From: Candidatus Parcubacteria bacterium
GTDB lineage: Bacteria; Patescibacteriota; Minisyncoccia; UBA6257; HR35
NCBI GenBank assembly: GCA_026004535.1
Contig: BPJI01000001.1
Coordinates: forward strand, 233,491 to 297,490
DNA length: 64,000 bases
Direction: 5' to 3'
The position numbers were made by a program, and so were the translations under genes. Below the pieces are notes generated by a model. It was not told the DNA's origin. It ran no database searches and saw only the letters and a list, made by a program, of their open reading frames with translations. Of the stretch, positions 8,950 through 63,749 are shown piece after piece. Within the stretch, counting starts at the first letter, position 1. Each line of letters begins with the position of its first letter.

Positions 8950-10473
8950 ATGAATCTTATCTCTTTTACAAATTTTAATTTATTTCGGGGTGAAAAAGAG
9001 CTTATTAGAGATAGTAATTTTATTATTCTTGAAAAAGAAAAAATTGGTCTTATTGGTCGAAATGGCAGTGGGAAATCAACTTTATTAAGTCTAATTTATA
9101 AGATTTGGCAAAATCAACCAATTGATAACGAAATAAGATTTACTGGTAAAGTTTTTGTTAATTCTAAGATAGTTTTTGGTTTTTTACCCCAAGAAATAAA
9201 ATTTGATTTTCAAGGAAAAGTTAAAGATTATTTTCAAACTGTGATAAAAACAAATTTTAATATAGAAAATAACTGGGAATATGAAAAAAGAAGAAATAAA
9301 ATTTTTAAGAAATTAAATCTATCAGAGGAAATTTTAAATAAAGACATGAGTAATATTTCTGGTGGTGAAGCAACAAGAATAGGCTTAGCCGGGGTTTTTC
9401 TATCTCAAGCCAATTTTTGGCTTTTAGATGAACCAACAAATAATTTAGATCTTGAAGGTATTGATCTTTTAATTGAAGAAATAGGAAATTTTAAAGGCAA
9501 TATTTTGATTGTTACTCATGATCGTCGTGTTTTAGATAAATTACAAAAAATAATAGAGATTGATGAAGAAACAAAAACAATTAGATCCTGGGGAGGAAAT
9601 TATAGTTTTTATAAAATAAAAAAAGAAGAAGAATATGAAGCAAGATTAAGAAAATATGAGGCACAGAAAGAGAAGAGAAAAAATCTCGAAAATACTATAA
9701 AAGAAATTAGGAAAAAAGCACAAATTTTCGAGAATTTAAGTAAAAATGCTTTCTATCGTAGTAAAGGTTCTAAATTGGCAAAAAGGGCATTAGCCATAGA
9801 AGCAAGAATTCAAAGAGAGCTGTTAGAACTTGATGAGCCATCTTTATCAGTTAAACCAAAATTTTTTGTTGGTAATATATCTGTAAAAGAAGGAAATTTA
9901 ATAGATGTTAAAAACTTAAATTTTAGCATTAACAATAAAAAAATCCTAAATAATATTGATTTAAAGATCAATTTTAAAGATAAAGTTTTAATTAAAGGTC
10001 CTAATGGTTCAGGTAAATCAACTTTAATAAAACTAATTACCAAAGAAATTGAACCAGAAAGTGGTGAGATAATTATTAATCCAAATATTAAAATAGGTTA
10101 TTTACCACAATCACCTCAAATAGAAAATCCTGAAATAAAAGTCAAAGAATTTCTAATCAAAAATTACAATCTGTCCGAAGATAATGTGAAAAGAATCTTA
10201 AATGAAATGAAAATTTCTGAAACAATTACTTTTAAACTTAAAGAACTTAGCCTTGGAGAAATTAGAAGAATTCAATTAGCAGCTATTTTATTTTTAGCTC
10301 CTAATGTTTTAATTTTAGATGAACCAACTAATCATTTAGATGTTTATACAATTGAAGAATTAACTGATGCTCTTAGATATTATTTAGATCAAGGAGGCAC
10401 AATTATTTTTTCCTCTCATGATGAATATTTTATTAACGACATTAAACCAAATAAGGTTATAAATTTACTATAA
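8950..10473 (+). CDS. ABC-F family ATPase (two tandem ABC domains, no TM domain)
   Basis: Walker A GRNGSGKST and GPNGSGKST, signatures LSGGE / LSLGE, K/E-rich inter-domain linker. 507 aa. Confidence 0.8.
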   Translation: MNLISFTNFNLFRGEKELIRDSNFIILEKEKIGLIGRNGSGKSTLLSLIYKIWQNQPIDNEIRFTGKVFVNSKIVFGFLPQEIKFDFQGKVKDYFQTVIKTNFNIENNWEYEKRRNKIFKKLNLSEEILNKDMSNISGGEATRIGLAGVFLSQANFWLLDEPTNNLDLEGIDLLIEEIGNFKGNILIVTHDRRVLDKLQKIIEIDEETKTIRSWGGNYSFYKIKKEEEYEARLRKYEAQKEKRKNLENTIKEIRKKAQIFENLSKNAFYRSKGSKLAKRALAIEARIQRELLELDEPSLSVKPKFFVGNISVKEGNLIDVKNLNFSINNKKILNNIDLKINFKDKVLIKGPNGSGKSTLIKLITKEIEPESGEIIINPNIKIGYLPQSPQIENPEIKVKEFLIKNYNLSEDNVKRILNEMKISETITFKLKELSLGEIRRIQLAAILFLAPNVLILDEPTNHLDVYTIEELTDALRYYLDQGGTIIFSSHDEYFINDIKPNKVINLL

Positions 10474-18276: not shown

Positions 18277-18314
18277 TATTAAAGTAGAAATCTAAAAGAA
18301 AGGAGGTGAGAAAG

Positions 18315-19295
18315 ATGGAAATCCAAAATTTAATGAGACAAAATGAAATTCAAAGTCAGAAAGGAGGTAAAATGATGCGTCAGGTGACCCAGCAGCAGGT
18401 GAATCGTTGGCTTAGTGGTAGTCTTGACTTTATGTGGCTCGAGATCGCCAAAAAGTGCAACTTGCGATGCATCCACTGTTACGCTAGCTCCAGCCTACAC
18501 CTTCCTCTTTTTGGAAAAATGAGTAAAGAGGATCGGGAAAGGGTGCTTGATGAAGGTATTCAATTAGGATGCCGCAGAGTTCAGTTCATTGGCGGTGAAC
18601 CAACTCTTCGCCCACATCTTTTCGAACTCATCCAACATGCCAAAGATGTTGGTTATGAGTTCATTGAGGTGTTCACTAACGGGACAATCCTCAACGATCA
18701 AAGACTGCACAGGATCAAGAAGTTAGGCGTTCACCTTGCTTTTTCGCTCTATGCCAACAGCCCTGACATTCATGAAAAAATTACCCAAAGCAATGGTAGT
18801 TTTTACAGGACCTTGGGTAATATCAAAAAGGCTGTCGGCATGGGCATCCCAGTGCGCGTTGGTGTCATTGTTATAAATGGCATCAATGACCACGTCGTTG
18901 CAAACACTCTGTCTATGCTCCAAGAAATTGGAGTTCAGAATGTTAAAACAGACAGAGTGCGAGGGATTGGTCAAGGAGCAGAACTTAATCCCAACCAAGA
19001 TTCTTTTGCCGAACTCTGTGGAGAGTGCTGGAAAGGGAATATCAGGATTGATGCTGATGGCAAAGCTTCGCCGTGTGTGATGTCGTGGTTCTATGAAGTC
19101 GGGGAGGTTAGCCAAACTCGAGGGCTTGCAGATGTTGTGAGCTCTTCGAGATTAGCTGATTTTAGGAAGAAGATGGCTGATATAAATCTTAGTTCAAATC
19201 AGCCATTAAACTGTAACCCTCCATGCCCAGTCCTATGTGGCCCGGATGAAGGATGCGATCCTTGCGTTCCAATTTGCGATCCGTGTCAACCATAA
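18315..19295 (+). CDS. radical SAM enzyme with C-terminal SPASM/twitch-like Cys cluster and Cys/Pro-rich tail; GC-rich horizontally acquired gene
   Basis: CNLRCIHCY (CxxxCxxC), GGEP motif, C-terminal CGECWKG..ASPCVMSWF cluster, tail CNPPCPVLCGPDEGCDPCVPICDPCQP. Two SD-ATG pairs (AGGAGGTGA-N5-ATG at 18315; AAGGAGGT-N4-ATGATG at 18372). GC ~50% vs ~30% flanks. Confidence 0.8.
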   Translation: MEIQNLMRQNEIQSQKGGKMMRQVTQQQVNRWLSGSLDFMWLEIAKKCNLRCIHCYASSSLHLPLFGKMSKEDRERVLDEGIQLGCRRVQFIGGEPTLRPHLFELIQHAKDVGYEFIEVFTNGTILNDQRLHRIKKLGVHLAFSLYANSPDIHEKITQSNGSFYRTLGNIKKAVGMGIPVRVGVIVINGINDHVVANTLSMLQEIGVQNVKTDRVRGIGQGAELNPNQDSFAELCGECWKGNIRIDADGKASPCVMSWFYEVGEVSQTRGLADVVSSSRLADFRKKMADINLSSNQPLNCNPPCPVLCGPDEGCDPCVPICDPCQP

Positions 19296-23505: not shown

Positions 23506-24702
23506 ATGGCAGCAAAATTTGAAAGAACAAAACCACATATCAATGTCGGTACTATTGGTCATGTTGATCATGGTAAAACAACCTTAACTTCGGCAATTAC
23601 TCATGTTCTAAAACTTAAAGGTTTGGTCGAAAGAGAATTAGCCTATGAAGAAATTGATAAAGCGCCAGAAGAAAAATCTAGAGGTTTGACTATTAACATT
23701 CACCACTGCGAATACGAGACAGAAAAAAGACATTATGCTCACATTGATGCTCCTGGGCATGTTGACTATGTCAAAAATATGATTGTTGGTGCGGCACAAA
23801 TGGATGGGGCAATTTTGGTCGTTGCCGCTAATGATGGTGTAATGGCTCAAACAAGAGAGCACATTTTATTAGCTCGTCAAGTTAACGTTCCAGCCATCGT
23901 TGTTTTTATTAATAAAGTTGACATGGTACCTGATAAAGAATTGATTGATTTAGTTGAAGAAGATGTAAGAGCTGAATTAAAAAAGCATGGCTATCCAGGA
24001 GATGAAATACCGGTTATTCGTGGTTCAGCTTTAAAAGCTGTAGAGGCAAAATCATTAGACGATCCTTGGGCAAAGCCAATCTTAGAACTTCTAGATACTT
24101 TAGATAATTATATTCCTGAACCAGTTCGTGATGTTGATAAGCCATTTTTGATGCCAATTGAGGATGTTTTCTCAATTGAGGGTCGGGGTACAGTTGTTAC
24201 TGGTAGAGTTGAAAGAGGAAAAATTAAAGTTAATGATGAAGTTGAAATTGTTGGTTTAAAACATGAACCAATAAAAACAGTTGTTACAGGTATTCAAATG
24301 TTTCACAAGGATATGGACGAAGCAATTCCTGGTGATAATGTTGGTTTACTTTTAAGAGGTGTTAAAAAAGAAGATGTTGAAAGAGGAATGGTTGTGGCTA
24401 AACCAGGTACAATTACTCCTCATACTGATTTTGAAGCCGAAGTTTATGTTCTCAAAGCCGAAGAAGGTGGAAGACACACACCATTTCATACTGGATATAA
24501 ACCTCAATTTTATATTCGAACGACAGACGTTACTGGTGAAGTTACTTTACCTGAAGGCATTGAGGCAGTAATGCCAGGTGATAATGCTAAAATGATTGTT
24601 AAGTTAATTTATCCTGTTGCCTTAGAAGAAGGTTCAAGATTTGCTATTCGTGAAGGTGGAAGAACAGTTGGTGCTGGAGTTGTAACTAAAATTTTGAAAT
24701 AA
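23506..24702 (+). CDS. tuf: elongation factor Tu
   Basis: [19 protein letters not shown] motifs. 398 aa. Immediately precedes rpsJ. Confidence 0.95.
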
Positions 24703-25028
24703 TGGTAAAAACAAAACAGTCTGAACAACAAATTGTTAGATTAAGATTTAGATCTTATGATCACAATTTACTTGATAAATCATTAAAGCAGATTGTTGAT
24801 TTATTACAGAAAGAGGGAATAGAAGTTAGAGGTCCAATACCATTGCCGACCGAAATTAAAAAATATACTGTTAATCGTTCGCCCTTTATCTATAAAAAAA
24901 GTATGGAGCAATTTGAAATGAGAATCCACAAAAGAATTTTAGATATTCTTAATCCTTCGCCAAGAATTTTAGAATTATTTAACTCTCTTGATTTACCAGC
25001 AGGTGTAGAGGTGGAGATAAAAGTGTAA
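24702..25028 (+). CDS. rpsJ: 30S ribosomal protein S10
   Basis: IRLRFRSYDHNLLDKS..RGPIPLPT S10 consensus. Confidence 0.9.
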   Translation: MVKTKQSEQQIVRLRFRSYDHNLLDKSLKQIVDLLQKEGIEVRGPIPLPTEIKKYTVNRSPFIYKKSMEQFEMRIHKRILDILNPSPRILELFNSLDLPAGVEVEIKV

Positions 25029-25032
25029 AATA

Positions 25033-25215
25033 GATTACCCGGATAAATACCGGATAGATTACCCGGATAACTAACCGGATTATTTTACCCGGATGATTAC
25101 CGGATAAATCCGGTTTATATCCGGTCTAAATCCGGGTAGTTGTATACGGTTTAAATCCGGGTAAATTCATCCGGGTGTACATCCGGGTAGTTCTATCCGG
25201 CTTATATCCGGGTAA
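25033..25215. repeat. CCGGAT-family palindromic array between rpsJ and rplC
   Basis: 7 forward TACCCGGAT/ACCGGAT copies then 8 reverse ATCCGG(G)T copies. Fills a 198-bp gap inside the S10 operon. Confidence 0.9.
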
Positions 25216-25226
25216 GCAGCTATTAG

Positions 25227-25871
25227 ATGGAAAATTTAAGGCCAAAATTTTTGTTAGCCAGAAAAATTGGGATGACGCAAATTTTTAAGAATGATAAGAC
25301 TTTACCAGTTACTGTTTTAGAGGCTTTACCAGCTGAAGTTATTAGGATTAAAGAAAAAAATAAAGATGGCTACGATGCTCTTATTTTAAAAATTGATAAT
25401 AAATTAAAAGAATTTAGGTTTGAAGGAGAGGCACCATTTAAAATTGGAGAAAAGATCGATGCTTCAATTTTTAATGTTGGGGAAATAGTTAATGTTAGAA
25501 GTCGAAGAAAAGCTAAGGGATTTGCCGGAGTTGTTAAAAGACATGGTTTTGCTGGTGGACCAAGAACTCATGGTCAAAAGGACAGAGAAAGAGCGCCAGG
25601 TTCAATTGGCCAAAGATGGCCACAAAGAGTGAGAAAAGGATTAAAGATGGCCGGAAGAATCTCTCCTATTTATGTAACAGTTAAAAATCTAGAAATTATT
25701 GATGTTTTACCGGAAAAAAATTTAATTTTAGTTAAGGGTTCTGTTCCAGGGCCAAATAAAAGATTAGTTGAATTAAGGAGTGCTTTTTTGGCAAATAAAG
25801 GTAGAATTTATTTAAATAAAGAATTAACTAAAAAGCTGAAAAGTTTAGAAACTGAAAAAGTTGTTCAATAA
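25227..25871 (+). CDS. rplC: 50S ribosomal protein L3
   Basis: KIGMTQIF start, L3 length and motifs. Confidence 0.9.
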   Translation: MENLRPKFLLARKIGMTQIFKNDKTLPVTVLEALPAEVIRIKEKNKDGYDALILKIDNKLKEFRFEGEAPFKIGEKIDASIFNVGEIVNVRSRRKAKGFAGVVKRHGFAGGPRTHGQKDRERAPGSIGQRWPQRVRKGLKMAGRISPIYVTVKNLEIIDVLPEKNLILVKGSVPGPNKRLVELRSAFLANKGRIYLNKELTKKLKSLETEKVVQ

Positions 25872-26515
25872 TGAAAACCTACTTATACAATTTTCAAGGC
25901 GAAAAGATTGGTGAGATAGAATTTCCAGAAATTTTTAATCTTGAATTTAATCCAGCTTTAGTTCATCAAGTAATGAGATGGCAGATGTTAAATAATTACC
26001 ATCCTTATGCTCACACAAAAACAAGGGGAGAGGTAAGAGGTGGTGGTCGAAAACCTTGGCCACAAAAAGGAACAGGCAGAGCTAGACATGGTTCGATTAG
26101 ATCTCCTATTTGGAAAGGAGGTGGTGTTGTTTTTGGCCCAAGAAAAGAAAAAATAAGACAAATTAAAGTTAATAAAAAAATGAAAAAAAAGGCAATTTTA
26201 ATGACAATTGCCGAAAAATTGAGACAAAATTTAATTAGAGTTATTGATAAATTAGAGCCAAAAGAATATAAAACAAAAGAATTTGAAAAATTTTTCAGTA
26301 AATTTTTACAGCCAAGAAAAACAAAAAAGAAAAAAGAAACTGCCTTATTAGTAATTGAAAATGATAAAAAAGAAATTTATCGAAGCATTCGTAATCTTCC
26401 TTATGCTGATGCTATTTCTGCTCGCAATTTAAACCTTTTAGAACTTTTAAATCATAAATATTTATTTTTAACCAAAGATTCCTTAACCGAACTTTACAAA
26501 AGATTTTCGGTGTAA
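25871..26515 (+). CDS. rplD: 50S ribosomal protein L4
   Basis: Position after rplC. L4-like GGGRKPW..KGTGRAR motif. Confidence 0.85.
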   Translation: MKTYLYNFQGEKIGEIEFPEIFNLEFNPALVHQVMRWQMLNNYHPYAHTKTRGEVRGGGRKPWPQKGTGRARHGSIRSPIWKGGGVVFGPRKEKIRQIKVNKKMKKKAILMTIAEKLRQNLIRVIDKLEPKEYKTKEFEKFFSKFLQPRKTKKKKETALLVIENDKKEIYRSIRNLPYADAISARNLNLLELLNHKYLFLTKDSLTELYKRFSV

Positions 26516-30378: not shown

Positions 30379-30930
30379 ATGAAATTAAGATTGTTTATTG
30401 CCCTATCTTTAACCAAAGGATTAATAAAGAAAATTAATTTTTTAGAAGAAGAGATTGAGACAAGGACCAAAATAAAATTTCCCTGGATTCCCGTTAAAAA
30501 TTTGCATTTAACAATTGTTTTTTTGGGTTATTTAAATTATGAAGACTTTATAAAATTAAGAGATATTTTCCAAAATTTTAATTGGCGAAAAAGGATTGAG
30601 GCTAAAATTAAGAAAATTGATTATGGTCCACCAGGACATAAAAGAATGATTTGGCTCTACTTAGAGAAGAATAAAGATTTGGAAGAATTAAAAAATTTAA
30701 TTGAAGAAAATTTAAATCAAACACAAATTTTTTATCATCGAGAGGAAAGAGAATTTTTGCCTCATATAAATTTAGCTAGATTAAAAAACATTAAAGACTT
30801 ACCAGAAATTAAAAAAGAATTAAATTGGCAGATAGTTTTTAATGAATTAGTCTTGTATGAATCAATTCTTAAACCAACTGGAGCTCTTTATGAAAAGCTT
30901 TTAAGATTGGATCTAAATTTCCATTCATAA
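30379..30930 (+). CDS. 2H-phosphoesterase (LigT/ThpR-like RNA 2',3'-cyclic phosphodiesterase)
   Basis: Two H-x-T/S-x motifs: HLTIVFLG and HINLARL. The ORF-track start at 30304 runs into the repeat; the Met at 30379 is more likely. Confidence 0.6.
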
Positions 30931-31610
30931 TATCTTCTAAATTATGCCAAGATTTATTGAGTCGATGGTCAGTAACGCGATTTTGAGGAAAGTTATAAGT
31001 TCTTATTTTTTCAGCTCTTTCTTGAGATCCAATTTGCTTTCTTCTTTCTTCAGTTAAATTGCCATAAATTTTTTGTTGTTCTAATTCCCAAATTTTATTT
31101 TTTAAAAGTTCTAAAGCTATTTCTCGATTTCTTTGCTGACTTCGTTCTGTTTGACAAGAGACAACAATTCCTGTTGGTTTATGTAAAATTCTGACAGCTG
31201 TTTCAACTTTATTGACATTTTGACCACCGGGACCTCCAGCTCTAAAAAAACTGATTTCGATATCTGACTCCTTAATTTGAATTTGGGGTAAATTTAATTT
31301 GGGCAAGATAGCAACTGAAGCAGTTGAAGTATGGATGCGTCCACTTTTTTCAGTTACTGGTATTCTTTGAACTCGATGAACTCCTGCTTCTTGCTTTAAT
31401 AAATCATAAGCTTTATTACCAGTAATTTCGGCTGTTAAACTTTTTATTCCTCCCAAATCAGTTTCATTTAAATCTAATATCTTGATTTTAAATTTATTTT
31501 TTTCAAAAAATTTTAAATACATTCGCCATAAATCACGGGCAAATAAGGCAGCTTCTTCGCCACCAACTCCAGCCCTGATTTCTAAATAGATTGTTTGAAT
31601 TTCTTGATTC
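30869..31610 (-). CDS. prfA: peptide chain release factor 1-like protein lacking N-terminal domain 1
   Basis: PVT tripeptide (RF1 type) and GGQ motif ([16 protein letters not shown]). Starts at MNQEIQ directly in domain 2. 247 aa vs ~355 normal. Confidence 0.65.
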
Positions 31611-31646
31611 ATACTAAAAAAGTATGTTATAATTAGAACACGAATC

Positions 31647-31859
31647 CTATTTTTTGTTTTTCTTTTTTTCTTGTCTTTGTAAAAATTTTTCAACCCTACC
31701 CATAACTTTTTTAGTTTCTTCTTTACCAGTAAAAACCGGAGAACAATTGCGACAAATTTCTACAAAAATTTCTTTTTTCGTTGCTGGAATTTCATATTCA
31801 GCACCACAAGCGCATTTTATCTTAGCTAAAAAATATTGGGGATGAATTTTGTTTTTCAT
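31647..31859 (-). CDS. rpmE: 50S ribosomal protein L31
   Basis: [10 protein letters not shown]...CxCG...[10 protein letters not shown]31 zinc-ribbon consensus. The ORF-track N-terminal 40 aa is upstream read-through. Confidence 0.8.
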
Positions 31860-31876
31860 AATATAATTATAACATA

Positions 31877-32593
31877 ATGGAAACACAAATCCAACAACAA
31901 GTTCAAGAGAGGATTTTTGGTGAAATGATGAAAGCTGGTGTTCATTATGGCCGAGCCAAAAGATACACTCATCCATCAATTAAAAATTTTCTTTTAAAGT
32001 CAAATAAGAATATTGAATTTTTTAACTTGAGATTAACTTTGCAAAAATTAAATGAGGTTAGTGATTATTTGAAACAGGCTTTGGCTGAAAATAAAAAAAT
32101 TTTATTTGTTGGTACGACTCCAGCAAGTCAAAACAAAATTCAAGAAATAGCTCAAGCTCTAAATCAGTATTATTTAAACTATAAATGGGTTGGTGGTTTT
32201 TTAACTAATTTTCAAACAATTAAAGCAAGGCTAATATATTTTAGAGAATTACTGAAAAAAGAAGAAAGTGGTGAAATTCAAAATTTGCCTCCAGCCCAAA
32301 GAGTGAAAATAGAAAAAGAACTTCAAAAATTAAAAAATCTTTATTCGGGAGTAGTTAATTTAGATTCTTTGCCCGATATTGTTTTTATTGTTAATTTGGC
32401 TTATAAACAACACAAAACAGCCAAAAGAGAAGCAATTAGAATGAAAATACCAATTATTGCTTTAGCTGGTTCAGATAATGATGTAAGTAATGTTTTTTTA
32501 TTTGTCCCTGGTAATGACAAAGCACCAAGAAGCATTGCTTGGCAACTAGATTATCTTTTGTCGAAAGTAAAAACACAGAATATACAGAACTAA
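31877..32593 (+). CDS. rpsB: 30S ribosomal protein S2
   Basis: MKAGVHYGRAKRYTHPSIKNF..IFNL..T S2 N-terminal consensus. 238 aa. Confidence 0.85.
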   Translation: METQIQQQVQERIFGEMMKAGVHYGRAKRYTHPSIKNFLLKSNKNIEFFNLRLTLQKLNEVSDYLKQALAENKKILFVGTTPASQNKIQEIAQALNQYYLNYKWVGGFLTNFQTIKARLIYFRELLKKEESGEIQNLPPAQRVKIEKELQKLKNLYSGVVNLDSLPDIVFIVNLAYKQHKTAKREAIRMKIPIIALAGSDNDVSNVFLFVPGNDKAPRSIAWQLDYLLSKVKTQNIQN

Positions 32594-50536: not shown

Positions 50537-51719
50537 ATGAATAAAAAAATAAATAAATCCTTCACTTTAGTTGAACTTTTAGTTGTCTTAGCTCTAATAG
50601 CTATCTTAGCTACTGTCTTAATTGTTGTCATTAAGCCAGCAGATATCTTTAAAAGAGGTAGAGATAGTCAAAGAACTTCAGACCTTAAAAATCTTGAAAA
50701 AATATTTGACCTTATTCTTTTTGAAACTCAAGGCACCTTTTCTGAACTTCAATATGCTTCCTCAAATGTTGTCTATATCTCTCTTCCTGATACTTCATCA
50801 ACTTGTGGTCAATGGATAAGTCAATTACCACAGCTTCCTTCAGGCTGGTCATATAGATGCTCAGCAACTCCAACAAATATTGATGGTACTGGCTGGATTC
50901 CTATTCCTTTTAATCAATTTTCAAGCATTAATCTTTCTAGACTTTTCATTGATCCAATCAATAGACCTCCATATTACTATGCATTTGTTGCTGGAGGAAG
51001 TTATGCTCTCTATGCTCAATTAGAAAATCCTCAGTCTCAAGCCTCAAAAACAGACAATGATAATTATCCTCATCTATTTTCAGTAGGAACAAATAAAAGA
51101 CTCATTGATCAAGCTCAAGGACTTGTAGGGTATTGGTCTTTTGATGATTGGAATGGAAATATTGCTAATGATTATTCAGGAAACAATAATAATGGAACCT
51201 CTAGTTAATGGTCCTCAACTTGTGTTGATGGTAAAGTAGGTAAAGCTTTAAGTTTTGATGGAGTGGATGATTATGTGGAAATACCTTATAGTCCGAGTTT
51301 AAATCTTTCTGGCAATAGTGAATCTTGTTTTATGGATAAAACATACCAGTGCTGTTTATAATTGTCAAGCAAATCAATGGAGCAGAGGTTATTTTCCACT
51401 AGGTGGCACATCTGTTATGCATGGCTCAGAATACTTGGTATAGTATTAATCAATGGTAATGCCTAATGATGGTGCTTTATCATTTGGTTGGGTATACTAT
51501 ATTAAACATCAACCGTCAAATCATATAAAGATGGCGAATTTATAGCTCAGTACATCGCAGTAGTCCTGTATTATCCTGCTTCTTCTTATTGGATGGATGG
51601 CTAGGTATGTGTCGAGCTGTTGCACATTTATTTTTCAAGGTCTCATCGACGAAGTCCGCATCTATAATCGTGCTTTATCAGACCAAGAAATAAAAGCATT
51701 ATATGAAGCAACAAAGTAA
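50537..51719 (+). pseudogene. decayed paralog of pilin-LamG gene 58779..59963
   Basis: 5' ~600 nt ~99% identical to intact copy. Second ATG mutated (ATA). In-frame TAA at 51206 plus indels. Divergent but LamG-like middle (..DDYVEIPYSPSLNLSGNS..) broken by frameshifts. Conserved tail LIDEVRIYNRALSDQEIKALYEATK* at 51640-51719. Confidence 0.8.
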
Positions 51720-58778: not shown

Positions 58779-59963
58779 ATGAATAAAAAAATGAATAAAT
58801 CCTTCACTTTAGTTGAACTCTTAGTTGTCTTAGCTCTAATAGCTATCTTAGCTACTGTCTTAATTGTTGTCATTAAGCCAGCAGATATCTTTAAAAGAGG
58901 TAGAGATAGTCAAAGAACTTCAGACCTTAAAAATCTTGAAAAAATATTTGACCTTATTCTTTTTGAAACTCAAGGCACCTTTTCTGAACTTCAATATGCT
59001 TCCTCAAATGTTGTCTATATCTCTCTTCCTGATACTTCATCAACTTGTGGTCAATGGATAAGTCAATTACCACAGCTTCCTTCAGGCTGGTCATATAGAT
59101 GCTCAGCAACTCCAACAAATATTGATGGTACTGGCTGGATTCCTATTCCTTTTAATCAATTTTCAAGCATTAATCTTTCTAGACTTTTCATTGATCCAAT
59201 CAATAGACCTCCATATTACTATGCATTTGTTGCTGGAGGAAGTTATGCTCTCTATGCTCAATTAGAAAATCCTCAGTCTCAAGCCTCAAAAACAGACAAT
59301 GATAATTATCCTCATCTATTTTCAGTAGGAACAAATAAAAGACTCATTGATCAAGCTCAAGGACTTGTAGGGTATTGGTCTTTTGATGAAGGAACTGGAA
59401 ATATTGCTAATGATTATTCAGGAAACAATAATAATGGAACACTCTATAATGGTCCTCAATGGGTTGATGGTAAAGTAGGCAAAGCTTTAAGTTTTGATGG
59501 AGTGGATGATTATGTCCAGACACCGTTATCCTCTAACATATTACCCCTAACAATTGAAGTATGGTTTAAAACAAATGTTAATACTGGGGAACATTCTATT
59601 GTTGATAGCGACGTCAGTGGGCGCTATGGGCAATCAATTATATTGGGCTATATGTATGGGGATAATACCTTAGACGTAGAATATCATGATGGATGGTATG
59701 ATTCTCCTTTTGTTGTTGGGGTAGGAGTTTGGCACCATGCGGTTGCAATTTTTACGACAGGGAAAGTGGAACTTTATGTAAATGGTAATTATATTGGTTC
59801 ACTAGTATTTACACAAGGATTCCTAGATGGAGATAATTTTAGAATCGGTAGGCACAATTCGGGCGACCCACAATGGTTCAATGGTCTCATCGACGAAGTC
59901 CGCATTTACAATCGCGCTTTATCAGATCAAGAAATTAAAGCATTATATGAAGCAATAAAGTAA
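58779..59963 (+). CDS. type IV pilin-like protein with C-terminal LamG-like (concanavalin A-like lectin) domain; only intact member of 3-copy family
   Basis: Prepilin-type N-terminus MNKKMNKS|FTLVELLVVLALIAILA with Glu+5. C-terminal LamG hallmark GLIDEVRIYNRALSDQEIKALY. Extended -10 TGTTATAAT at 58764-58772. Confidence 0.8.
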   Translation: MNKKMNKSFTLVELLVVLALIAILATVLIVVIKPADIFKRGRDSQRTSDLKNLEKIFDLILFETQGTFSELQYASSNVVYISLPDTSSTCGQWISQLPQLPSGWSYRCSATPTNIDGTGWIPIPFNQFSSINLSRLFIDPINRPPYYYAFVAGGSYALYAQLENPQSQASKTDNDNYPHLFSVGTNKRLIDQAQGLVGYWSFDEGTGNIANDYSGNNNNGTLYNGPQWVDGKVGKALSFDGVDDYVQTPLSSNILPLTIEVWFKTNVNTGEHSIVDSDVSGRYGQSIILGYMYGDNTLDVEYHDGWYDSPFVVGVGVWHHAVAIFTTGKVELYVNGNYIGSLVFTQGFLDGDNFRIGRHNSGDPQWFNGLIDEVRIYNRALSDQEIKALYEAIK

Positions 59964-60633: not shown

Positions 60634-61047
60634 ATGCCAACAATTAATCAATTAATAAGAAAAGGTAGAAATAAGATTGAAAAGAGGTCAAGGTCGCCAG
60701 TGCTTTTGTATTATTATAATTCTTTAAAAAGAAAAGAAAAGTATTTGCCAGCACCTTTTAAAAGAGGTGTTTGTATTAGAGTTTATACAATGACGCCAAA
60801 AAAGCCTAATTCAGCTTTAAGAAAAGTTGCTAAAGTTAGATTAAGTAATGGCCGTGAAGTTACGGCTTATATTCCTGGTATAGGTCATAATTTACAAGAG
60901 CACTCAATTGTTTTAGTTCGTGGTGGGAGAGTAAAAGATTTGCCAGGGGTAAGATATCATATTGTTCGTGGCGTTTATGATGCTGCTGGTGTTGAAGGCA
61001 GAAGACAAGGTCGATCGTTATATGGAGCTAAGAAACCAAAAGAATAA
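60634..61047 (+). CDS. rpsL: 30S ribosomal protein S12
   Basis: [31 protein letters not shown]. Extended -10 TGTTATAAT at 60619-60627. Confidence 0.95.
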
Positions 61048-61057
61048 AAATCTGTTT

Positions 61058-61120
61058 ATAATTAACGACGTATGACGTTCTAGATATTATTTTCTCAATA
61101 TCTGGACGTTGCACGTCATA
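61058..61120. repeat. REP-like imperfect palindrome between rpsL and rpsG
   Basis: ACGACGTATGACGTTCTAGATATT ... AATATCTGGACGTTGCACGTCAT. Degenerate member of the GACGTGCGATGTCC palindrome family. Confidence 0.6.
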
Positions 61121-61128
61121 GATTAATA

Positions 61129-61617
61129 ATGCCAAGAAGGAAAATTAAAATTGAAAGAAAATGGAATCCAGACCCTGTTTATAATAGTATTGCTGTGACT
61201 CGTTTTATTAACAATTTAATGAGAAATGGTGAAAAGTCAAAAGCACAAAAGATTTTTTATAAGGCAATGGACATTATTCAGCAAAAAACAGGTGAAAATC
61301 CAATAAAAGTTTTTCAAACAGCAATTAAGAATGTTGCTCCAGTTGTTGAGGTTTGGCCAAGAAGAATTGGTGGAGCAACTTTTATGGTGCCAAGACAAGT
61401 AAGATCAGAAAGAAGATTTTCTAAAGCAGTTAAATGGATTATCGAATCAGCCAGAAACAAAAAAGGGAAGCCAATGTTTGAAAAATTAGCTGAAGAAATT
61501 ATCGCCGCCAGTCAGGAAGAGGGCGATGCTTATAAAAAGAAGGTTGAGGTCCATAAATTAGCTGAGACTAATAAAGCCTTTGCCCATTTTGGTTGGTGGG
61601 GAAGGAGACAAAAGTAA
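61129..61617 (+). CDS. rpsG: 30S ribosomal protein S7
   Basis: S7 consensus ..[17 protein letters not shown].. 162 aa. Lies between rpsL and fusA. Confidence 0.9.
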
Positions 61618-63749
61618 TGCCGCGTTTATATCCAATTGAAAAAACAAGAAATATAGGAATTATTGCTCATATTGATGCCGGTAAGACAACAACAACTGAA
61701 AGAATTTTATATTACACCGGAATTTCTTACAAGATTGGTGAAGTACATGAAGGGACAACTGTTACCGATTGGATGCCTCAAGAAAGAGAAAGAGGAATAA
61801 CAATTACTTCAGCAGCAGTTACTTGTTTTTGGACCCAAAGTTATTTAAAACAACCAGAAACAAGAGAAGAAAGAATTAAAGGAGAATATAAGATTAATAT
61901 TATTGATACTCCAGGACATGTTGATTTTACAGCTGAAGTTGAAAGATCATTAAGAGTTTTAGATGGGGCAATTGTTGTTTTTGATGGTGTTCAGGGAGTT
62001 GAAGCACAATCAGAAACTGTTTGGCACCAGGCTGATAAATATAAAGTTCCAAGAATTTGTTTTATTAATAAATTAGATCGAATTGGGGCTGATTTTGAGT
62101 TTTGCCTAAAGTCAATTGAAGAAAGATTAACCAAAGACTTTGCTTTAATAACTTTGCCAATTGGCCAAGAGAAAGATTTTAAAGGGGTAATTGATTTAAT
62201 TTCAATGAAAGAAGTTTACTTTGAAGGCGAAAGAGGAGAAAAAGTAATTTATAAAGAAATTGATCCTTCAAGAAAAAATGAAGCTGAAAATTGGAGACAC
62301 ATTTTTTTAGAAAAATTAGCTGAAAGAGATGAAGAATTTATGGAGAAATATTTAGCTAATGAATTTAATGAAATTGACATTCGTCAAGCAATCAGACGCC
62401 AGGTTTTAAACTATAATTTTATTCCTGTCTATGTTGGTTCGGCTTTAGACAATAAAGGAGTGCAACTTTTACTTGATGGTGTTGTTGATTTTTTGCCCTC
62501 ACCAATTGATTTACCTTCGCCTCGAGGAATTGATCCTTTAACTAATCAAGAAATCGAAAGAAAACCAACTGATGATGAAGCCTTTTCTGCTTTGGTTTTT
62601 AAAATCCAAGTTGATCCTTATGTTGGGACTCTGTCTTATGTTCGAGTTTATTCAGGAATTTTAAAGGCAGGAATGACAGTTCTAAATACAACAACTGGAG
62701 AAACGCTGAGAATTGGAAGAATCGCTAGAATGCATGCTAATCATCGTGAAGAAATTGAAGAGCTTTTTGCTGGTGATATTGGCACTATCGTTGGCATTAA
62801 AACATTGAAAACAGGTGATACTTTGGCTGATCCTAAAAAACCAATTGTTTATGAAAAAATTGAATTTGCCGATCCTGTTATTTGGATGAAAGTTGAACCA
62901 AAAACAAAAGCTGATCAAGAAAAAATGGGTTTAGCAATTAAGGCTTTAGTTGATGAAGATCCAACTTTTAAATTATCTCAAGATCCTGATACTGGCGATA
63001 CTTTAATTGGTGGTATGGGAGAACTGCATTTAGAAATTAAAGTTGATAGATTGAAAAGAGAATTTAATGTTGAAGTTAATGTTGGCAAACCCCAAGTTGC
63101 CTACTTAGAGACAGTAACCAAAGAATCAGTTGCTGAGGGAAAATATATTAGGCAAAGTGGTGGTCGGGGTCAATACGGTCATGTGTGGTTAAAAGTTGAA
63201 CCATTAGAAAGAGGCAAAGGTTTTGAATTTGTTAATGCTATCAAAGGCGGTATTATTCCTGATAATTTTATTCCTTCAGTTGAAAAAGGAGTCAGGGAAG
63301 CGATGGAAAAGGGAGTTTTGGCTGGTTATCCAATTAGAGACATTAGGGTAACTTTGTTTGATGGCTCTTATCACGAAGTTGACTCTTCTGATATTGCCTT
63401 TAAAATTGCTGGCGCGATTGCTTTACAAGAAGCAGTTAAACAAGGAAATCCAATTTTACTTGAACCAATTATGAAAATTGAGGTTGTTATCCCTCCGGAA
63501 TTTTTAGGCGATGTTACTGGAGATTTATCTTCACGTCGAGCAAAAATTGAAGAAGTTTTTGATCGAGGAATGAGTAAGGTAATTAGAGCTAAAGTACCGT
63601 TGGCAGAAATGTTTGGTTATGTAACTGTTTTAAGATCATTAACTCAGGGAAGAGGAACAAATATGATGGAATTCTCTCATTATGAACCCGTGCCTCAAAA
63701 TTTATCCCAGGTTATTATTCAAAATTTTAATTTAACCAAAAGTAAATGA
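61593..63749 (+). CDS. fusA: elongation factor G
   Basis: [26 protein letters not shown]-motifs. Five-domain length 718 aa. Confidence 0.95.

Follow-up and report, generated by a model that had tools for sequence, protein, structure and literature searches.

A release factor 1 without domain 1 in a Parcubacteria bacterium and the reduction of this domain among its relatives

To our knowledge, domain 1 is present in the housekeeping release factors RF1 and RF2 of the bacteria characterised so far, and also in the organellar RF1-type factors. A gene in a 64-kb stretch of the genome of a Candidatus Parcubacteria bacterium (the whole stretch is called the window here) raises the question of whether a bacterium can rely on an RF1 from which this domain is missing altogether. 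An initial annotation, made from the letters alone, proposed that the window encodes such a protein, and that it might be a natural class-I release factor without domain 1 or might reflect a reduction of the termination machinery in this lineage. Three other explanations have to be weighed: an artefact or decaying gene, a specialised paralog that coexists with a normal RF1, and a domain 1 that is supplied by a separate gene. The observation itself is confirmed, as this bacterium carries an RF1 gene without domain 1. The preferred reading, to which a probability of about 85% is given, is that the gene represents the lineage's housekeeping prfA ortholog, from which domain 1 was deleted cleanly where it borders on domain 2.

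The short prfA gene and its product

The gene, its functional motifs and the gene at its 3' end are as follows.

30869 to 31612, minus strand: short prfA, encoding a 247-aa RF1 with domains 2, 3 and 4 only (ORF list, Pfam, NCBIfam, PDB alignments, AlphaFold2 model)
31553 to 31570, minus strand: GVGGEE, residues 15-20, tip of the U1-recognising helix (Thermus G116 and E119; alignment to 4v4r_AY)
31352 to 31360, minus strand: PVT tripeptide 'anticodon', residues 85-87 (Thermus RF1 P184-T186), codons CCA GTA ACT (sequence and alignment)
31220 to 31228, minus strand: GGQ catalytic motif, residues 129-131, codons GGT GGT CAA (sequence)
30379 to 30930, plus strand: LigT/2H-phosphoesterase-like gene, outside the release factor and given for context only (Pfam LigT_PEase, E = 8e-11)

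The reading frame runs over 247 codons from the ATG at 31612-31610 to the TAA at 30871-30869, so that the end coordinate of 31610 in the initial annotation was off by two nucleotides. At its 3' end, the gene overlaps the convergent LigT-like gene by 62 nt (30869-30930).

The extent of the truncation was established with profile and structure alignments. The Pfam RF-1 (GGQ) domain PF00472 is complete (positions 4-116 of 116, E = 1.3e-40), while the Pfam PCRF profile aligns at its positions 100-194 of 194 only. The NCBIfam prfA models pair with the protein from model positions 104 and 112, respectively, to the end. Gap-free alignments to proteins in the PDB cover residues 108-341 of Thermus thermophilus RF1, 89-319 of Thermotoga RF1 and 110-347 of E. 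coli RF1. Taken together, these starting points indicate that approximately 100-107 N-terminal residues, which make up domain 1, are missing, and that the 247-aa protein begins, as judged from the alignments, at the linker between domains 1 and 2 of canonical RF1. The earlier proposal of an RF1 that starts at domain 2 and is about 105 residues short is thus borne out. The two NCBIfam prfA models gave 357 and 349 bits, compared with 253 bits for prfB, 89 bits for PrfH and 59 bits for ArfB. Both prfA scores fall below the equivalog cutoffs of these models (400 and 423 bits), as the protein leaves about 105 model positions unmatched.

All of the elements that are known to read the stop codon are found in the remaining part. 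Based on the alignment to 4v4r_AY, residue n of the 247-aa protein corresponds to residue n+99 of Thermus RF1. In the latter, the residues that read the first, second and third stop-codon positions (U1/A2/R3) are G116, E119, Q181, H193 and T194. G17 and E20 of the short protein correspond to G116 and E119, and Q82, P85-V86-T87, H94, T95 and the switch loop Q193-I203 are all present. The PVT tripeptide of RF1 specifies UAA and UAG. Both PVT and GGQ had been recognised in the initial annotation, and their codons can be read directly at the coordinates given above. An alignment of 40 members of the clade, which are 69-95% identical to the 247-aa RF1, has a mean column identity of 78% and 99 invariant columns. 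The invariant residues include G15, G17, G18, E19, E20, Q82, P85, T87, H94, T95, the GGQ at 129-131 and the switch loop Q193-I203. On this evidence, the decoding module and the catalytic module are both complete.

An AlphaFold2 model built on the same 40-member alignment has a mean pLDDT of 83. It resembles the ribosome-bound, open form of RF1 (query TM 0.89-0.91, rmsd ~2.5 Å), compared with a TM of only ~0.58 against the closed crystal forms. Over domains 2-4, the short protein is ~45-55% identical to canonical RF1 (Thermus thermophilus 4V63, E. coli 2B3T, Thermotoga maritima 1RQ0), and it shares with it the PxT and GGQ motifs, the helix-α5 tip, the His/Thr pair, the switch loop and the predicted open fold. 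Canonical RF1, however, has a helical-bundle domain 1 of ~100-107 residues, which carries the contact surface for the L11 N-terminal domain and RF3, and this is absent from the short form. A comparison of short and long RF1 sequences yielded five clade-specific residues only, none of which is obviously compensatory.

The search for domain 1 and the identity of the gene

If domain 1 were still encoded nearby, the most obvious place would be the region upstream of the ATG, which holds two further features.

31613 to 31646, minus strand: spacer between rpmE and prfA, 34 nt, containing a TATAAC box (sequence)
31647 to 31859, minus strand: rpmE, ribosomal protein L31, 70 aa, TAG stop (Pfam Ribosomal_L31, E = 4.5e-20)

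Between the TAG stop of rpmE and the ATG of prfA there are 34 nt, and the two are in different frames. Such a spacer leaves no room for an exon that encodes domain 1, and a longer reading frame is not possible. An in-frame extension of prfA can be opened at the TTG at 31693, but it adds 27 K-rich residues that overlap the 3' end of rpmE in another frame. The initial annotation had dismissed this extension as junk, and the Pfam assignment of rpmE agrees with that judgement.

The spacer has no obvious Shine-Dalgarno sequence before the prfA ATG, and a promoter scan of its minus strand found nothing. By inspection, the ATGs of rpmE and prfA are each preceded, at a distance of a few bases, by a TATAAT-like box, and neither gene has a Shine-Dalgarno sequence. 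This suggests that the mRNAs of the two genes may have very short leaders or may be leaderless. On the other side, rpmE (minus strand) and the rpsB reading frame (plus strand) diverge, and the earliest start codons that they could use are only 17 bp apart (31859-31877). The Pfam S2 match starts at residue 17 of the rpsB frame, and the true rpsB start is therefore probably located later.

The search was then widened with a profile HMM of domain 1. The corresponding regions of 67 longer RF1 proteins served to build it, and filters were switched off in the search. In all six frames of the 64-kb window and of 11 other RF1 loci with short or stub forms, including flanks of up to 10 kb, the best match had an E-value of 0.17. 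An upstream or frameshifted exon for domain 1 was thus looked for and not found. A tblastn search of the window with the 247-aa protein matched no RF-like sequence apart from the gene itself, in line with the initial claim that this is the sole RF-like ORF.

To see whether the short form is restricted to this assembly, homologs were sought among 5.8 billion proteins. The protein is 100% identical to the 'hypothetical protein KatS3mg096_260' of a Candidatus Parcubacteria MAG. The best 120 homologs, which come from NCBI, JGI, ENA and Logan assemblies, are 69-100% identical and all 239-252 aa long, with no full-length protein among them. Where they are named, they belong to Parcubacteria, Pacebacteria, Minisyncoccia or Patescibacteria. 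The short form is thus kept throughout the clade, and its N-termini agree within a few residues across more than 100 independent assemblies.

These data bear on the possibility that the short gene is the product of a wrong start call or an assembly error, or that it is a pseudogene truncated at its 5' end. The missed NCBIfam equivalog cutoffs would fit such an explanation, as would the labels 'hypothetical' or 'PCRF domain-containing' that are attached to the short RF1 at NCBI. However, a nearly identical N-terminus in so many independent assemblies, invariant decoding and catalytic residues, and an rpmE gene that ends too close to permit a longer frame are difficult to reconcile with an artefact or a decaying gene, and this explanation is effectively refuted.

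A broader sample was obtained by scanning species-representative genomes with a widely shared RF1 peptide pattern (GQNVNKVE). At least 80 RF1 loci were collected in this way, and they constitute a mixed sample rather than a set of close relatives. In the window, the neighbours of the short prfA are rpmE, the divergent rpsB and the convergent LigT-like gene. Also at four loci with short or stub forms (L006, L008, L009 and L053), rpmE is directly upstream of RF1. The same holds for the long RF1 genes of Patescibacteria, at L021, L025, L026, L031, L040, L044, L067, L071, L075 and others, and the adjacency of rpmE and prfA is seen in some other phyla as well. Since this slot is common to short and long forms, the short gene occupies the ancestral position of prfA. 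Judged from gene order, it is a positional ortholog of the longer RF1 of Patescibacteria and not a PrfH-like paralog.

The alternative that remains to be considered in this context is a specialised rescue paralog of the PrfH or ArfB type, coexisting with a full-length RF1 that is encoded outside the window. PrfH is an accessory factor of ~200 aa with an altered 'anticodon' loop, and its gene is paired with one of the RtcB type. PrfH/RFH (TIGR03072; PDB 7SA4, 9MOR) is similar to the short RF1 in that it is a natural member of the RF family that keeps the GGQ motif and has no domain 1, and the 247-aa protein does match it weakly, both in the profile and in the structure 9mor_A (E = 1e-15). Nevertheless, the score for TIGR03072 (89.3 bits) is well below the cutoff of 166.65, while the RF1 models give 349-357 bits. 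The tripeptide is the canonical PVT instead of the altered motif of PrfH, and no RtcB-like partner adjoins the gene. ArfB, ICT1 and mtRF-R (C12orf65) are reduced members of the RF family that retain the GGQ domain but not superdomain 2/4, and whose action does not depend on the codon; those of the ArfB/ICT1 type consist of the GGQ domain and a basic C-terminal tail. In contrast, the short RF1 has a full domain 2/4, and the ArfB models match its residues 109-143 only. Furthermore, no second release factor was found within 10 kb on either side of RF1 at the 80 loci listed, and the conserved rpmE-prfA slot and the lack of full-length proteins among the best 120 homologs point in the same direction. 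On the evidence of these relatives and of the 64 kb covered here, out of a contig of ~557 kb, a rescue paralog beside a full-length RF1, which the initial annotation had named as the main competing explanation, is considered very unlikely.

Several other features of the window may be recorded here. The str-S10-spc array of ribosomal protein genes is broken up into segments at 23506-26515, from 40433 onward and at 60634-63749. The genes tuf-rpsJ-rplC-rplD are ~14 kb away from rplW-rplB, and between them lie dnaE, prfA, rpmE, rpsB, tsf, a putative RNase HII-like ORF that was assigned by eye from the sequence, and others; rpsL-rpsG-fusA is found at the far end of the window, apart from tuf. Three type IV pilin-like genes (Pfam N_methyl) are present on the plus strand at 38739-39059, 50537-51208 and 58779-59963. 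Their first ~105 residues are essentially identical, after which the sequences diverge, and the first gene ends at 106 aa. The third (394 aa) is located directly after secA and has a Laminin_G_3/concanavalin-like lectin domain. By their sequences, the three genes resemble a cassette or variation system for pilins. A radical SAM/SPASM protein is encoded at 18306-19295 (plus strand) in a stretch with a higher GC content (0.34 versus ~0.28 in the flanks). Finally, an ABC-F type ATPase with two ABC_tran domains and an ABC_tran_Xtn linker (8950-10473, plus strand) is a candidate EttA-like translation factor. EttA is reported to be unusually essential in a cultivated member of the Patescibacteria (PMC11665869).

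Length classes of RF1 across Patescibacteria

The lengths of RF1 at the 80 loci listed were taken from re-derived reading frames. Outside Patescibacteria, they are mostly 350-361 aa among these loci. Many RF1 proteins of Patescibacteria have 312-349 aa, including those of MAGs named RAAC4_OD1, Kaiser-, Taylor- and Paceibacterota. A few, of 267-270 aa, have an N-terminal stub of ~20-30 residues, and at least nine loci, from MAGs with Jorgensen-, Lipton- and other Patescibacteria names, encode an RF1 of 239-249 aa. The RF1 proteins of most other Patescibacteria (312-329 aa; L010, L016, L030, L031, L036, L040, L044, L061, L066, L067, L071, L075 and L076) have two deletions in domain 1, one of ~18 residues at the N-terminus and one of ~16-17 residues that is internal. 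Separately, a hairpin of ~10 residues in domain 2 is also absent from L030, L076 and the database representative P0123.

The forms with a reduced domain 1 (312-349 aa), such as those of RAAC4_OD1 (L031), Kaiserbacteria (L016) and Taylorbacteria (L066), share the rpmE-prfA context with the short RF1 and are 50-58% identical to it over domains 2-4. They differ from it in that they retain a domain 1 that is shortened, compared with RF1 from outside Patescibacteria, by the N-terminal and the internal deletion, whereas the clade of the window has none.

A neighbour-joining tree of domains 2-4 places the forms of 232-252 aa in one clade. In the same tree, the 270-aa RF1 of Nomurabacteria (L053) nests within the clade of ~320-aa proteins. 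Among the proteins found in a database search with L053 (P0271-P0390), ~50 clusters have 263-290 aa, and these are interleaved at ~75-88% identity with relatives of 315-339 aa. The RF1 of this Nomurabacteria subgroup keeps an N-terminal stub of ~20-25 residues only, and from the tree and the lengths it represents a second, independent truncation of domain 1. The tree and the length classes together therefore indicate erosion of domain 1 throughout the superphylum and, on at least two occasions, a truncation that left little or nothing of it. The loss seen in the window would accordingly be the end point of a trend that runs through Patescibacteria.

Not every short or unusual entry in the databases could be taken at face value. 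Two proteins with two RF stretches each, P0121 (477 aa) and P0122 (481 aa), were considered as tandem short release factors and rejected, as they are internal duplications of a full-length RF1. The duplicated part has ~130-140 residues, and the two entries are probably assembly artefacts that act as cluster representatives. Most of the other short representatives that were inspected start in the middle of domain 1 and resemble partial gene calls, and these were not counted as natural.

The graded series also bears on the proposal that the ancestral prfA was split and that domain 1 now acts in trans, as a stand-alone protein encoded elsewhere in the genome. Graded erosion in sister lineages points to loss rather than to relocation, and the domain-1 profile gave no match better than the one mentioned above, in the window or around the short and stub loci. 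On the evidence of these sequences, a domain 1 supplied in trans is highly improbable. A natural class-I release factor without domain 1, encoded by a real ORF, is the interpretation that is supported. The suggestion of a reduction at the level of the lineage holds as well, given the uniform length of the closest homologs, the reduced domain 1 in relatives and the second truncation.

Termination without domain 1

Stop-codon usage indicates what the housekeeping prfA product has to do. In the window, TAG ends rpmE, tsf and secA, and TGA ends lepA, rplB, fusA, rpsU, gatA and trxB, all at normal C-termini. The ORFs of at least 100 aa end with TAA in 42 cases, TGA in 22 and TAG in seven. As both TAG and TGA terminate conserved genes, the genetic code is the standard one and RF1 activity is required for TAG. 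It also follows that RF2, for which the window has no gene, must be encoded outside it.

To find RF2 genes, metagenome contigs were scanned with an AT-biased DNA pattern for SPFD...RRHTSF. This yielded 120 RF2 loci; the pattern had no match in viral contigs. In every locus that is not cut by a contig end, the SPF motif is preceded by 181 residues or more, and the gene is full-length. None of the 120 looks Patescibacteria-like, since their SecA proteins do not exceed 47% identity to that of the window, and other shared genes do not exceed 57%. One locus, L185 (530-823 and downstream, minus strand), was considered as a short RF2 and rejected, because its domain 1 lies just upstream in another frame. 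In this prfB, the frame changes near residue ~100, whereas the canonical frameshift site is near codon 25; a sequencing error or a pseudogene is the probable explanation.

What domain 1 does elsewhere is known in some detail. On the ribosome, its helices α2 and α3 touch the N-terminal domain of L11, and α2 bridges to domain 3 of RF3 (PMC3677378). Among the domains of the release factors, domain 1 is the least conserved. According to Mora et al. (2003), as summarised in PMC1586002, E. coli RF1 from which domain 1 was removed remains codon-specific, releases peptide in vitro and is functional in vivo, although it is unable to stimulate nucleotide exchange on RF3; small genomes are stated there to lack prfC, which is non-essential. 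The engineered E. coli protein (Mora, Zavialov, Ehrenberg & Buckingham 2003, Mol Microbiol 50:1467) has the same architecture of domains 2-4 as the short RF1. However, it is a laboratory construct in a host with RF3 and a full-length RF2, whereas the short RF1 is natural and clade-wide.

Based on these data, a mechanism can be proposed. The short RF1 would bind to the A site, where the PVT loop, the tip of helix α5 and His94/Thr95 would decode the stop codon. It would then open and place the GGQ motif in the peptidyl-transferase centre in the same way as canonical RF1. Since the two contacts are both made by helices α2 and α3 of domain 1, the protein could neither dock to the N-terminal domain of L11 nor form a bridge to RF3, and ordinary decoding of UAA and UAG and the release of the peptide would proceed without them. 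The release factor would turn over without RF3, either spontaneously or through the recycling machinery, and the mechanism predicts a lineage that lacks RF3. Thermus is not known to have RF3 and yet retains domain 1. The absence of RF3 would thus be necessary but not sufficient to explain the loss of domain 1, and some role of the domain that is independent of RF3, such as the contact with L11, would have to be dispensable here too. Any role of domain 1 beyond the recruitment of RF3 is a matter of debate, which centres on the L11 contact and on the different L11 dependence of RF1 and RF2.

A literature search found no description of an RF1 without domain 1 in CPR/Patescibacteria, including in a review of release-factor evolution (PMC6514570) and in a domain-wide survey of prfB and prfA from 2025 (PMC12421855), the latter being restricted to RefSeq representative genomes. 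The conserved domain-1-less RF1 of Patescibacteria has apparently not been reported so far. It is not a shocking find, as domain 1 was already known to be dispensable. Its interest is that it is the natural counterpart of a deletion that was previously made only in the laboratory, together with a phylogenetic series that leads to it. A conserved natural form shows that a deletion tolerated in E. coli is a viable state in the long term. The series from full length through reduced and stub forms to none, with two independent end points, can be correlated with RF3, RF2 and L11. There is also a practical consequence: an essential short prfA that is labelled 'hypothetical' or 'PCRF domain-containing' may cause automated surveys to score RF1 as missing.

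Translation termination thereby joins the ribosome-associated reductions that are known in Patescibacteria. A wider proposal, for and against which the odds seem about even, is that large clades of Parcubacteria terminate with minimal class-I release factors that lack the domain for docking to L11 and RF3, and that this state was reached at least twice, by adaptive or neutral streamlining, after erosion across the superphylum. If this is true, termination and recycling in these bacteria would take place without RF3 and without the bridge between the release factor and L11, and there might be matching changes in RF2 and in the GTPase-associated centre. The function of domain 1 could then be studied in Patescibacteria as a natural system.
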